From Octopus vulgaris (taxonomy: Eukaryota), in NCBI GenBank assembly GCA_951406725.2, contig OX597835.1, positions 41,168,001 through 41,232,000 on the forward strand: a DNA stretch of 64,000 nucleotides, given 5' to 3'. This document shows, in pieces, positions 16,137 through 51,631 of the stretch. How positions within the stretch are numbered: the stretch's first letter is position 1; the number at the start of each line of letters is the position of its first letter. Position numbers and translations under genes: made by a program. The notes beneath the pieces were generated by a model that had not been told where the DNA came from, searched no databases, and was given only the letters and a program-made list of their open reading frames with translations.

Positions 16137-16356
16137 TTTTACGGAGATGTACTTGCATAGCAAGTGATTTGATCTGAGATCGTGTGCTGAAACGAAAAAA
16201 ATTGCAGCGTGGAAGGTGTTTGTAAGCCATTTAAGAAGCACACAAAAGCCATTCGATTCACTTCAACATTTAAGTTTAATTTGTCAAAATATTTTCGTCG
16301 CTTTAAGACCGCAACCTGTTCACTGACAAAAATATTTTGACAAATTAAACTTAAAT
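16137..16356 (-). mobile_element. Short Penelope-like insertion with terminal inversion and 12-bp TSD
   Basis: ATAATTCCTGGG at 16125-16136 and 16355-16366; 28-bp perfect inverted repeat 16268-16295/16329-16356; contains a hammerhead fold. Confidence 0.65.
16280..16330 (-). ncRNA. Minimal type I hammerhead ribozyme-like motif, G3-C8 core variant
   Basis: tttgtca-GTGAACA-g-gttgc(9 nt)gcgac-GAAA-atat-TT-tgacaaa: 7-bp helix I, 5-bp helix II, palindromic AATATT helix III. Confidence 0.6.
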
Positions 16357-16624
16357 AATTCCTGGGACATTTTCAAAATGTATTTCAAAGGTAACCAATT
16401 GTTTAGAACAAAAATACGTAGGAGTATTTTTCTTACCTTGTTCATTCTTGCTCTGATAAAGGTGGTACATGACTGACCAGCGGACTTGGACACCGGTAAC
16501 TACCAGAAAAACCACCACCACCACCACCACCGTCGCCGCTGCCACCAGCACCAGCACCACCACTACCAGCACCACTACCACCACCACCACCAGCTGTACC
16601 ACCGCTGCCAGCAGCAACAACAGT

Positions 16625-16962
16625 GGAGGCGCAATGGCCCAGTGGTTAGAGCAGCGGACTCGCGGTCGGAGGATCACGGTTTCGATTTCCAGACCGGGCA
16701 TTGTGTGTGTTTATTGAGTGAAAATACCTAAACTTCCACGAGTCTCTGGCAGAGGGTGATGGCGACCCCTGTTGTACTCTTTCGTTCCAACTTTCTCTCA
16801 CTCTTTCTTACTGTTCCTTGTCCTCGACTTCCTACGCAACCGCTGAGCCTGGATGCGCATTCATCCATCCGTCAATGCTCTCGGTGTCGGGGGTTGACCT
16901 GCTTTCTCTTCTGCGGGTCTTACGAATAGCAAAGGACCACGTTTCGGACTCCTCCCACTACA
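16625..16962 (+). mobile_element. SINE family C, tail type 3
   Basis: Same tRNA head and central block as 15290 and 6735; unrelated 3' part after ~16810. Confidence 0.8.
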
Positions 16963-18839
16963 GACAATCCTGAGGCACGATCTTGCGAGCTCTGGGACGA
17001 AGACCACAGCAACAACACCAACACCAACACCAGTATTATCATGCCTAATGTTGATGTTCATGTTGTTGTCATCACCTCTTTTGCTCACTGGCAACTCTTG
17101 TGCTTGTCCTCCTCCTCCTCCTCCTCGTCATCATCATCATCATTATCGTCATCACTGTTATGACTTTAACACACTTCCCCTCCCCCCGATCTTTCAATCT
17201 TCACATCATTTTAACTTTGTCTCAGAGACCCCCCACCTCACTCCAACTAATCTTGCCATGCTGCAACCATTCAATCTTCACTTGTCCTTTGCGGAGAGGG
17301 ACCTTAATACCTATTGGTAATTATTCATCTCCTAGTGAGAGAGGGATAGCAGGGGTGGGTGGGCGAGGGGTAATTATTATCAGGACCATCAATACTGTTT
17401 CCATAAACACATCAAAATATCTCTCAGACCCCTTGCCCCCACTTCTTAAATCACTTAGAAATCTATTCAGCACCCCCCACACAGATATGTTCTTTATAAC
17501 CCTTCCATTCTGGGATGTTTGGGTTTTTTTTATAGCATAAAACATTTTATATATTTACTTCTTTAACCACAAGAAAAAGTTATGAAGGGGTAAGTAGGGG
17601 GGGGGGAGCCGCAAAGAAAGGCAGCTCTTAAAACATTGGAAATATATCGGTTAGTGCAATATACGTATCTATATTTATCTATCAACCTATACACATACAT
17701 ACATGCATATACACACATACACTTACACATGTGCGCACGCACACACGCACACACTCACTCACACACACATCCATTAATACATGCATACATACACATAAAT
17801 ATATATTTGTGTGTGTGTGTGAACTTTTATATTATATATATATATATTCATACATTTAGATAAATGTATATATGCATGTGTATATATATATATATATATA
17901 TATATATATATATATATACACACACACATTATATATATATATATAATATATATGAATATAGATATAAATATATGTATGTGTATATATATGTTATATATAT
18001 AACATATATAATATACATTCACACCTATAAACACATATACATATATATATGCATATATATGTGTATGTATATATATATATAAATATATATATATATATAT
18101 ATATATATATATATATATATATATATATATATATAAATAAATAAAAAATATATATATAGATAGATAAATAAAACTTATATATGTATACACACACATACAC
18201 ACACACACACATATATACTATGTATGTGTGTGTGTGTGTGTGTGTGTGTGTGTAAAGAAAAACAAAAACCAGGGAAGGCGCTGAAGACATCCTGAGGCTG
18301 ACATGATTCAATTTCACTCAAGCTATTTGATTCTGGATGACTTTAAATTATCAGGCAGCTGTTTAGGTTGGTCCTTCCAATCTTAAATGGGCCGTCTTCA
18401 GAGCTTTCAACACAGCACTACCCACTTCATTTCTTTTCTTTGTCAGTCTCAGACTTTACTCAAGTCTACCACCACCACCACATCACTCTTCTACTAAACT
18501 AAACACTTCTCTTCAGTTATTCACCAATAAAATACATTTCCCTAAAAATCCAACCCCCTTTCATGCTCTCCTTTGGATAATATTTTTAATTTTGGATTTG
18601 TTTGTTGTATTTCACTGTTTGAAATAATTTTTTTGTCATTTTCTGTTTCTTTTGCTACCCCCCTCTCTCTCTCTCTCTCTTTCTCTCTCTCTCTCTCTCT
18701 CTCTCTCTCTCTTTCTCTTGCTTTTCCACTCTACATAAATTGTGTATTGAGTCCATATTGAACTATGGTCTTACTAGATCTATACTCAAAATATTCCATA
18801 CATCACCATCATCATCATCATCATCATTGCCAATGACCA

Positions 18840-19162
18840 TTGCCAGAGCAGCCAACTGGCTTCCATGCCAGTGGCACATAAAAGGGCACCATTCGAGCGT
18901 GATCTTTACCAATGTCGCCTTACTGGCACCTGTGCTGGTGGCATATGTAAAAGGATTCAAGCGAAGTCGTTGCCAGTACCGCCTGACTGGCCCCCGTGTC
19001 AGTGGCATGTAAAAAGCACCCACTACACTCTTGGATTGGTTGGCGTTAGGAAGGGCATCCAGCTGTAGAAACTCTGCCAAATCAAGATTCGCCAGCCCTC
19101 AGTCAAAATTGTCCAACCCATGCTAGCATGGAAAGCAGACGTTAAACGATGATGATGATGAT
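18840..19162 (+). mobile_element. RTE LINE 3' UTR fragment with (GAT)n tail
   Basis: GGTTGGCGTTAGGAAGGGCATCCAGCTGTAG...GACGTTAAACGATGATG, same as the 3' end of the RTE at 22033-22840. Confidence 0.85.
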
Positions 19163-49135: not shown

Positions 49136-49227
49136 GACCTTATTTGGAAACTGGCGAGGGTTGGTGACAGGAAGAGCATCTAACCATAGAAAATATGCTA
49201 CTATAAACTCTGTCTGACCCATGCAAT

Positions 49228-49582
49228 ACTCTTTTACTCTTTTTACTCTTTTACTTGTTTCAATCACTTGACTGTGGCCATGCTGGAACACAGCCTTTTT
49301 AGTCGGACAAATCGACCCCAGGACTTATTCTTTGTAAGCCTAGTACTTATTCTATCAGTCTCTTTTGCTGAACTGCTAAGTTATGGGGATGTAAACACAC
49401 CAGCATCAGTTGTCAAGCGATGCTGGAGGAACAAACACAGACACACAAATATATTCACACACACATACGCATATACATATGTGCATATATACGACGGGCT
49501 TCTTTCAGTTTCTGTCTACCAAATCCACTCACAAGGCTTTGGTCAGCCCGAGGCTACAGTAGAAGACATTTGCCCAAGGTGC
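49228..49582 (-). mobile_element. SINE family A, head truncated
   Basis: Tail, internal microsatellite and partial head. Confidence 0.82.
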
Positions 49583-51131
49583 ATAATTAACCAGGTCATT
49601 CAGGAAGGTGTAATAATAGTAGCTCCCAGGAGTTATTGGTTTTGAATTCCCCTGTTATGGCCTGGAGGTCAATGATGAAAAGGAGGGGTTTAAGGACTGT
49701 TAGCTGTTACAATGGTAGGCGTGATGCATTTGATAGAAGCAATTAGAAAGCAGTCTCCTGGACCAGGTGATGAAAATTACAGAGAGTATTATAGCCCAAT
49801 TAATTAGGAGCAGAATTAGGCTAGACGAAATGCAGTTTGGTTTTGTCTGGGGAAGAAGTACTACTGACACTATTTTCATAGTCAAGCAACTGTAAGAGAA
49901 GTACTTAGCTAAGTATAAACCATTATACTTGGCATTCATTGATCTAGAAAATGCCTTTGATAGAGAACCCCACTGTGTGATATGGTGAGTAGTGAGGAGT
50001 CTAGGGATTGATGAGTGGCTTGTGAAAGCTGTACAGGCATTGTACAAAGATGCTGTCAGTGAGGTGAGAGTTAACCATGAGTAGAGCAAAGAATTTGGGG
50101 TATAGGTAGGGGTTCATCAAGGCTCAGTCCTTAAACCCCCTCCTTTTCATCATTGACCTCGAGGCCATAACAGAGGAATTCAAGACCAGTAACCCCTGGG
50201 AACTACTATATGCTGATGATCTTGCCCTCATAGTAAATTCCATATCAGAGCTAGAGGAGAAATTCCAGTTATGGAAGCAAAACCTGGAATCTAAGGGCCT
50301 TAAAGTTAACTTAGCAAAGACTAAAGTCCTAGTATGCAAGAAAACTGACAGGACACTATGTACTTCATGTAGGTGGCCTTGTTCAGGTAGGTGGCCTTGT
50401 AGAAAATGTGTAGGCGGAAACTCCATATAGTGTACCCAGTGTAAGCTATGGACACAAGAGGTGCTGTGGATTAATAAGATTATCAGAGAAAATAGTGTTC
50501 ATATATGGAAGATCCACAGGATCCATAAAAATTATAGAGATTCAAGAAATTGATTAACTCAAATGCCCTAGTAGTTGATGGTAGACGTAAGCAATAATTT
50601 CTGTTACCTAGGGGACCAAATTAGTAGTGCAGGAGAATGCAAAGAGTGTAGGAGCTAGAATAAGAGTAGGGTGGAGGAAATTCAGAGAAATGTTACCTCT
50701 GTTGACTATGAAAAGTTTCTCTCTCTGAGTGAAAGGAAGATTGTATGATGCATGTATACAGACAGCAATTCTGCATGGTTGTGAGACATGGGACCGGAAT
50801 GCAGAAGACATGCAAAGGTTAGAGAGGAATGAGGCTAGTATGCTCTGCTGGGTGTGTAATGTAAGTGTACATGTTCAACAGAATGCTAGTGTTTTGTGAG
50901 AGAAGTTTGGTATAAGAGGAATGAGTTGCTGTGTGCAAGAGAGAAGACTGCATTGGTTTGGTCATGTGATGTGGATGGGTGCTGACTGCTCCATAAAGAA
51001 GAGCTGATCTCTCAAAGTAGATGGAACATGTGGAAGTCGGAGACCCAGGAAGACATGGAATGAAGTGCTGAAGAATTACCTCAGGACACTGAACCTTTCA
51101 GGTGAGATGACAAAAGACTGAGATGCCTGGT
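49583..51131 (+). pseudogene. Decayed RTE LINE reverse transcriptase region
   Basis: MQFGF, GRSTTD, FIDLENAFD, GVHQGS, LYADD (near 50207-50221), HGCETW, RPRKTW; many stops. Confidence 0.9.
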
Positions 51132-51134
51132 GGG

Positions 51135-51631
51135 TTCCCGAAAAATTTTTTATCCTATATCAATTATAAATAGATTAGTATTCATTTCCGGATTCTATCA
51201 CTCTGTGAAAGTTTCTAGTTCGAATCACACGTGTCTTGAGGTGCGCCTAAGATTTTTCTATTTGGATATATTTGGAGTACTTAAGTCTGCTCGGGACTTG
51301 GTGCTTGCTTCTTCCATGGGTATGAATAAGTATTTCATTTATATCTTGCGTATGTGCCGCTGAAGAGGGGAAAATTTCTTATGGATTAACCCCGAAATTG
51401 GACCAATACGGTAATAACGAATTTTTTAGAGATTTCTATCGGTTTGTTTCGAGACACATAAATTTAATGGTTATCGACAATTTTTTGTTTCGGCGTATCT
51501 GGCATTAGAATTTTTCTTCTGCCCTTATCTTGTAAATTATGTATAAATTTTACCTTTAAAGGCATTTTTTGATATGCTGGCCATTGATAACATTTTTTTC
51601 CAGAAAAATTTTTTATCCTATATCAATTATA
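51135..51631 (+). mobile_element. Retrozyme/Penelope pLTR-like unit (463-bp period, terminal direct repeat)
   Basis: GAAAAATTTTTTATCCTATATCAATTATA at 51140-51168 and 51603-51631; central hammerhead; ends in (TA)n. Confidence 0.7.
51355..51413 (+). ncRNA. Type I hammerhead ribozyme, canonical core
   Basis: tgccg-CTGAAGA-gggg(19 nt)cccc-GAAA-ttggaccaa-TA-cggta; predicted cleavage after A51408. Confidence 0.8.

Follow-up and report, generated by a model that had tools for sequence, protein, structure and literature searches.

Penelope and Poseidon elements have a 218-bp pseudo-long terminal repeat (pLTR) that contains the first 12 codons of the element's open reading frame (ORF), with a tail extending to 22, and their insertions show inverted pLTRs and target duplications of 8–10 bp (Arkhipova 2013, PMC3846280). 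In the anole element PAc, reverse transcription begins 111–118 nt into the ORF and the template is uncleaved RNA (Frangieh 2024, PMC11167929). Penelope-like elements (PLEs) also carry minimal hammerhead ribozymes (Cervera and De la Pena 2014, PMC4209133), and what these do for Penelope elements with an endonuclease has been described as unclear (PMC8557442). Here we describe the hammerhead motifs in a 64,000-nucleotide stretch of Octopus vulgaris DNA (assembly GCA_951406725.2, contig OX597835.1, positions 41,168,001 to 41,232,000 of the forward strand), referred to as the window, and in particular an insertion at 16137–16354 whose motif has G at core position 3 and C at core position 8 (G3-C8). 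On the reading we favour, the window contains short terminal pieces of PLEs from several unrelated families, every piece bearing the minimal type I hammerhead of its family, and the G3-C8 insertion is a solo pLTR with its tail. We place the probability of this reading at about 0.75.

Hammerhead motifs with three different 3-8 pairs

The window DNA is of animal type, rich in microsatellites and dense with short repeats. Both strands were searched with a type I hammerhead descriptor that accepted any letter at positions 3 and 8 and an optional unpaired base after A9, and that required helices I and II of at least 3 pairs each and a palindromic helix III. The descriptor was tuned after the candidates were known, an earlier version without the optional unpaired base having overlooked the motif at 16323. 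Chance expectation was estimated from 200 block-wise dinucleotide shuffles of the window. Five matches with a Watson-Crick 3-8 pair were observed against a mean of 0.16 in the shuffles, 0/200 of which reached five. Matches with a non-Watson-Crick 3-8 combination were found once, with 0.5 expected (75/200 shuffles).

The five motifs have C3-G8 at 51360 (+) and 7752 (−), U3-A8 at 29731 (+) and 36340 (−), and G3-C8 at 16323 (−). All of them have U4, G5, A6, A9, G12, A13, A14, the A15.1-U16.1 pair and H17 at a three-helix junction, and helix III is palindromic in 5/5. Each motif sits inside a discrete insertion with PLE-type ends. The motif-bearing families share no BLAST similarity with one another, except for the copies at 29731 and 36340 (92% over 127 nt), and no tandem array of hammerhead units occurs within the window, where every copy is single. 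An earlier reading of the letters alone, here called the sequence-only reading, had named four of these cores and proposed that they fold as type I hammerheads with palindromic helix III and three different 3-8 pairs. Descriptor and folding located all four and bear out this proposal, with C-G found twice, U-A twice and G-C once, and searches for CUGANGA would, as it predicted, miss two of the three cores. By sequence and predicted fold, the motifs are genuine Penelope-type minimal hammerheads.

Rfam hammerhead models gave no match locally around 16323, 51360 or 7752, and for the whole window no hammerhead was present among the 150 of 206 Rfam matches listed, which belonged to simple-repeat and hairpin families only. 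A weak descriptor match at 12291 was dropped since it fails once a palindromic helix III is demanded, and one-mismatch matches at 60006 and 10603 were put aside as likely chance.

Anatomy of the G3-C8 insertion

The G3-C8 insertion and its parts are as follows.

16137..16354, minus strand: G3-C8 family insertion, read as a solo PLE pLTR and its tail and carrying an inverted 5' arm; the family body spans 16139–16331
16280..16330, minus strand: type I hammerhead motif with core GUGAACA; G3 at 16323, C8 at 16318
16331..16355, minus strand: inverted 5' arm, exact reverse complement of 16269–16293 (25/25 identical)
16125..16136 (left) and 16355–16366 (right): target-site duplication, 12/12 identical
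16139..16230, minus strand: start of a longer reading frame, first 31 codons; presumed PLE ORF start

The motif comprises a 7-bp helix I, a 5-bp helix II, an AAUAUU palindromic helix III, U17 and an unpaired base 9a, with the cut predicted between 16287 and 16286. This single unpaired base, located after position 9 and before position 10.1, is required for the GUGAACA motif to fit and is a described feature of minimal hammerheads (Cervera 2014, PMC4209133). In the 16137–16354 copy the hammerhead is sequestered by the inverted arm, the predicted probability of helix I being 0.0 with 60-nt flanks.

In sequencing run X12 one and the same contig depth (45.7) is recorded on the left of the insertion, up to 16129, and on its right, from ~16360, and the two flanks, put together, spell the duplicated 12-mer once. 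Contig depth and ends thus point to an empty, uninserted site in this run. A short inverted match between the ends of the G3-C8 element prompted a reading as a DNA transposon (miniature inverted-repeat transposable element, MITE). The 12-bp duplication led us to reject it, as did the inversions, the pair of 3' ends and the overlap with an ORF described below. An unrelated low-copy repeat at ~25x flank depth lies at 15960–16045, 100 bp from the insertion.

Abundance, ends and variation of the G3-C8 family

Contigs from four of the 24 runs listed (X1, X5, X8 and X12, with four organism labels) were mapped on 15950–16505 at 80% likeness; the runs listed for this region bear five organism labels in all. 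Element depth at the core was 0.9–2.7 x 10^4 times that of the single-copy flank in 4/4 runs, a ratio that gives an order of magnitude only and not a copy number. The family element is ~210 nt long and of the order of 10^4 copies in the four runs.

Among the ends listed, the 3' ends of the family are fixed at 16200 and 16139, and the 5' end lies ~15 nt beyond 16331; loose contig ends were recorded at 16139, 16200 and 16331. The strand switches at 16331 in 4 of the 15 joints listed, indicating 5' inversions elsewhere in the family. Contig depth has no step at the predicted cut, so most copies hold both ribozyme halves, and no cluster of ends occurs there among the loose ends listed for the four runs. 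Since copies span the cut site without a step in depth, the template looks uncleaved, as it does for anole PAc. These results speak against the description of the families as ribozyme-processed in the sequence-only reading.

Variants at a threshold of 5% or more were considered for the best-supported 36 of 48. Eighteen lie inside the element, 4 inside the motif and 0 at the 13 core positions. The four motif variants comprise one loop position, two that yield G-U pairs and one majority letter, at 16313 (92–99% across runs), which turns the helix II U-G of the window copy into C-G. The lack of any core variant at or above 5% in the four runs indicates that G3-C8 is the family state rather than a double mutation private to the window copy. 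A search of assembled contigs with a 20-base stretch of the element hit 6 metagenome-contig loci, 6 genome-contig loci and 0 viral-contig loci; all 12 were dismissed as chance, each matching 20–28 bases only.

Overlap of the G3-C8 element with the beginning of a longer reading frame

At its 3' end the element codes, over 92 nt, for the N-terminus of XP_029654200.2 (P0001) from Octopus sinensis at 93% identity, and tblastn agrees. The ATG lies 56 nt past the predicted cut. The two 3' ends of the family fall 31 and 92 nt after the ATG, 61 nt apart, which puts the shorter 3' end 87 nt past the cut. XP_029654200.2 runs ~190 residues further, in a part unrelated to the PRMT domain that begins at residue 222, and no solved structure outside the PRMT part appears among the 60 of 80 matches listed. 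In this protein, ~220 residues that probably stem from the beginning of a retroelement ORF are followed by a PRMT3-like methyltransferase domain. We read it as a gene model that fuses the element ORF to a host gene, probably an annotation artefact and possibly an exonisation.

Among 151 proteins, XP_029654200.2 and the PLE-derived P0009 are the only two with the motif F-[ILV]-x-x-C-[ILV]-x-x-x-[VIL]-x-P. This F-x-x-C-type motif, together with a K-F motif near residue 217, we take to be typical of PLE N-termini. A GxKF/Y motif has been named for PLEs (Craig 2021, PMC8557442). The overlapped ORF is presumed to be that of a PLE.

Predicted folding

Folding of the isolated motifs gave well-formed helices I and II in 4/5, with pair 2.1-1.1 at a probability of 0.67–0.94; the value for 7752 is 0.23. 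Cofolding yielded an intermolecular helix III for 4/5 motifs, and not for G3-C8. Changes within helices are few. The U3-A8 copies differ by one G-C/A-U exchange, and the G3-C8 family has three one-sided compatible changes without excess conservation.

Cleavage by the PAc hammerhead needs the element's protein, as reported in PMC11167929. Pairing of positions 3 and 17 is described as a trap, and a G3-C8 variant performed better without C17 (Kalweit and Hammann, PMC3884650). The U17 of the octopus G3-C8 motif would fit avoidance of this trap.

Other hammerhead-bearing insertions in the window

The two U3-A8 copies belong to one family.

29597..29814, plus strand: U3-A8 copy with inverted 5' arm from 29597 to ~29660; hammerhead 29728–29765, core UUGAAAA at 29731
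36259..36383, minus strand: second U3-A8 copy; hammerhead 36308–36343, core UUGAAAA at 36340

Pair 10.1-11.1 is A-U in the 36340 copy versus G-C in the 29731 copy. Both copies end beside short (TA) runs, and they appear to be the same kind of end-fragment as the G3-C8 element, from another family. The sequence-only reading had counted the U3-A8 core among the non-canonical finds. It is already in print, both as the UUGAAAA core listed for the Schistosoma mansoni Cercyon element (PMC4209133) and as a natural hammerhead variant (PMC3088659). Short tandem duplications of a 14-nt stretch at 29661–29690, where the inverted arm joins the U3-A8 unit, suggest repeated template jumps during insertion. 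A pyrimidine-rich stretch that ends in CAG directly before the core (29690–29730, plus strand; 36341–36383, minus strand) resembles a 3' splice site. Were splicing to occur at that CAG, helix I would lose its entire 5' strand. A comparable but weaker AG in the G3-C8 family has G3 as its second letter, and in Penelope of Drosophila virilis an intron end lies at helix I (PMC4209133).

The two C3-G8 motifs lie in longer units.

51135..51638, plus strand: 463-nt unit with a ~30-nt terminal direct repeat, then (TA)n
51355–51413, plus strand: hammerhead with core CUGAAGA at 51360 and an 11-nt palindromic helix III
7540..8062, minus strand: 487-nt unit with a perfect 36-nt terminal direct repeat, then (TA)n
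7663–7758, minus strand: intact hammerhead with core CUGAUGA at 7752, a 6-bp helix I and a 12-nt palindromic helix III

In both units the last 30–36 nt are repeated at the 5' end, and neither has a long ORF. Their helix III is predicted to allow a monomer fold within 1.0–2.7 kcal/mol of the minimum. The units resemble ends of Hydra-clade PLEs or short non-autonomous derivatives. Beside 51135–51638 are fragments resembling long interspersed nuclear elements in both orientations and an 85-bp inverted duplication (49616–49699/50125–50209; 49759–51081/55702–57004). A 167-bp inverted repeat (98.8% identical) at 63349–63689 adjoins (TA)n and may be either a young MITE or the end of a PLE in inverted form.

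A PLE remnant and decayed motifs related to it make up the remaining group.

32848..33953, minus strand: 5'-truncated Neptune-like PLE remnant between (TA)n tracts, with a broken GIY-YIG domain at ~33960–33650
32933–32968, minus strand: decayed hammerhead in the remnant, core site 32964
24186..24220, plus strand: decayed hammerhead; the fragment that holds it is 70% similar to the 3' end of the remnant
26085..26127, minus strand: decayed hammerhead-like stretch related to the remnant's 3' end (24 nt, E 0.013)

The remnant had been taken for a GIY-YIG Penelope fragment, and it is one. A HMMER protein search found 160 relatives at E up to 0.001, and PF01541 is present in 23 of the 27 relatives scanned (27 of 150 listed). 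The remnant's own translation matched no Pfam family, and a word-based protein search with it returned nothing; its endonuclease end is broken by stops and a frameshift. A CX2-5CXXC linker occurs in 119/150 relatives and is truncated away in the window copy. The remnant matches the GIY-YIG domains that follow this linker in Neptune-clade PLEs (Craig 2021), and like them it lies between (TA)n tracts, but it keeps the endonuclease end alone. Because Naiad and Nematis endonucleases also carry the linker (Craig 2021, PMC8557442), the Neptune clade is likely and not proven. The suggestion that elements like this remnant may mobilise the hammerhead-bearing insertions finds no support, as the remnant is Neptune-like, has a decayed hammerhead of its own and, by BLAST within the window, shares no sequence with the four intact-motif families.

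Six decayed relatives of the hammerheads had also been listed. Those at 32964, 24190 and 26123 hold as decayed relatives of one another, the one at 7752 is intact, and those at 18401 (−) and 23256 (−) are unproven, as they keep CUGANGA but have neither an intact GAAA nor intact helices and were picked up by neither descriptor. At 32964 (−) and 26123 (−) the core reads CUGU-N-GA, with U at core position 6, in copies decayed elsewhere; the third relative, at 24190, has A6 and C4. An A6U core may extend across this Neptune-like family.

Origin of the insertions and capacity to cleave

The reading as PLE end-fragments is carried by the motifs, the abundance and fixed ends of the G3-C8 family, its inversions, the target duplication and the overlap with an ORF. 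Because of the ORF-start overlap and the pLTR-tail anatomy, the G3-C8 element is better read as the solo end of an autonomous PLE than as a retrozyme. Its copying, as we infer it, would begin when a PLE protein nicks AT-rich DNA. Reverse transcription would start at either of two fixed sites inside the element's own ORF, 31 and 92 nt past the ATG, and uncleaved RNA would be copied back to the 5' end, ~23 nt upstream of G3. Such copying would yield the ~210-nt insert, in some cases bearing an inverted 5' arm and flanked by a target duplication. The change from C3-G8 to G3-C8 would have arisen once in a master element and then been amplified. Within a complete element the motif is probably a slow ribozyme helped by dimerisation or by protein, and the solo copies in the window are probably inert.

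Several observations weigh against this reading. A full element with reverse transcriptase and endonuclease was linked to none of the intact-motif families, and sampling beyond the window covered the G3-C8 family only. The match between XP_029654200.2 and P0009 is weak (pairwise E 0.01, phmmer E 0.035), and residues 1–218 of XP_029654200.2 returned no longer relative and no usable atlas match. The 3' ends of the G3-C8 element are 61 nt apart, compared with a published tail of 30–40 nt. With 60-nt flanks, predicted helix I is at most 0.04 in all five copies. A pair between positions 3 and 17 can form in both variant cores (predicted probability ~0.67), and the AAUAUU dimer helix of G3-C8 is very weak (−0.2 kcal/mol). 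Variant density is alike inside and outside the motif (4/51 and 14/142), and 0/13 core variants has a chance probability of 0.28, which is not significant; core invariance is therefore no evidence of selection.

Chance folding in an AT-rich, repeat-rich genome is a barely credible source of the motifs. The descriptor is short and was tuned on the candidates, and Rfam hammerhead models have no match; nevertheless the five matches stand against 0.16 expected, with 0/200 shuffles as rich, and all five lie in discrete insertions with PLE-type ends. A less improbable but still unlikely origin is that the motifs belong to self-standing, non-autonomous, retrozyme-like families, cut by their own hammerheads to give monomers or circles that PLE enzymes copy in trans. 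Such an origin would be most plausible for the 463- and 487-nt C3-G8 units, which lack a long ORF, have a helix III stable enough for monomer folding, and carry a terminal redundancy of 30–36 nt that corresponds to slightly over one turn of a tandem or circular template. Animal retrozymes are, moreover, reported to derive from PLE pLTRs (bioRxiv 10.64898/2026.07.22.740005). Yet the window has no tandem copies, the two units exceed the 150–450 bp given for retrozymes (PMC7229834), and their terminal repeats may instead represent long target duplications or what is left of a truncated upstream pLTR. For the G3-C8 element, the overlap with a long reading frame and the copies that cross the cut site are further objections. 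The sequence-only reading had called the families non-autonomous or retrozymes; the frame start and pLTR-tail anatomy of the G3-C8 element, and the absence of any motif from a tandem array, speak against this, and among the window motifs only the two C3-G8 units may be non-autonomous.

Whether the G3-C8 motif cuts is a separate matter from its origin. It may descend from a hammerhead and no longer cut, being kept by master-copy amplification or as a protein-binding or splice signal, an explanation we rate at somewhat less than even odds. The core without excess conservation, the competing G3-U17 register and the weak helix III agree with it, and G3 is part of the possible 3' splice-site AG. 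PLE minimal hammerheads are reported to cut poorly in vitro (PMC4209133), and in PAc the engineered C3G/G8C change restores cleavage only in part while insertion in vitro proceeds without cleavage (PMC11167929). Against loss of cutting, the 13 core positions and three helices match the consensus save for an exactly compensatory double change at the one tertiary pair, which drift would not easily fix, many published PLE hammerheads have U17 (PMC4209133), and the majority family letter at 16313 improves helix II. The opposite proposal is a tentative one that we consider rather doubtful, namely that G3-C8 is a working natural hammerhead in which position 8 (the general acid) and position 3 are swapped and which has become fixed in a PLE family numbering tens of thousands of copies in several octopus-type genomes, with U17 avoiding the G3-C17 trap. 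If it is true, the compensatory swap would imply selection for cleavage in the life cycle, even though insertions copy uncleaved RNA.

Comparison with known systems

As PLE end-fragments, the octopus insertions agree in most respects with described elements. Like the PLE minimal hammerheads of Cervera and De la Pena 2014 (PMC4209133), the window motifs are type I with a palindromic helix III and an unpaired base after A9; further likenesses are G10.1-C11.1, mostly single dispersed copies and the presence of several unrelated families per genome. G3 is found in 0/56 representative motifs of Figure S3 in that paper, and the G3-C8 family of the window is not among them.

The G3-C8 element resembles Penelope/Poseidon and PAc in several features: a ~200-nt pLTR that reaches into the beginning of the ORF, 3' ends at two fixed places, an inverted 5' arm, a short duplication and copies across the cut site. 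The distance from the cut to the shorter 3' end, 87 nt, compares with 85–92 nt from the PAc figures, whereas the ATG lies 56 nt after the cut in the G3-C8 element and 26 nt before it in PAc.

The 51360 and 7752 units are closest to Hydra-clade PLEs, including Hydra-1_Obim of Octopus bimaculoides (PMC8557442, Files S1 and S2), with which they share the C3-G8 core, a palindromic helix III of 9–12 nt and a preference for insertion at (TA)n. Sequence motifs of the two units were not found in that supplement, and no Hydra ORF is attached to them within the window. All 34 rows listed in File S2 of Craig have C3, and G3-C8 occurs in 0/34 (PMC8557442). Animal non-LTR retrozymes are likewise short and non-coding, low in G+C and equipped with a type I hammerhead (PMC7229834; bioRxiv 10.64898/2026.07.22.740005), but they are described as tandem repeats of 150–450 bp with canonical hammerheads and circular RNAs, whereas the octopus copies are single and known from DNA alone.

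PLE minimal hammerheads, the U3-A8/UUGAAAA core and a PLE hammerhead in octopus are thus already known. No natural G3-C8 hammerhead was found in the literature covered, which holds engineered mutants only; Lunse 2017, Przybilski 2007 and Hammann 2012 fall outside that coverage. The pair is engineered in PAc (PMC11167929) and natural in the octopus family, where a G3-C8 core that is otherwise consensus-perfect and fixed in an abundant family would be new if it has no earlier record. Ribozyme censuses that use CUGANGA or U3-A8 descriptors can miss families of the order of 10^4 copies, and a family with both letters of the catalytic 3-8 pair swapped provides a natural test of selection for cutting.

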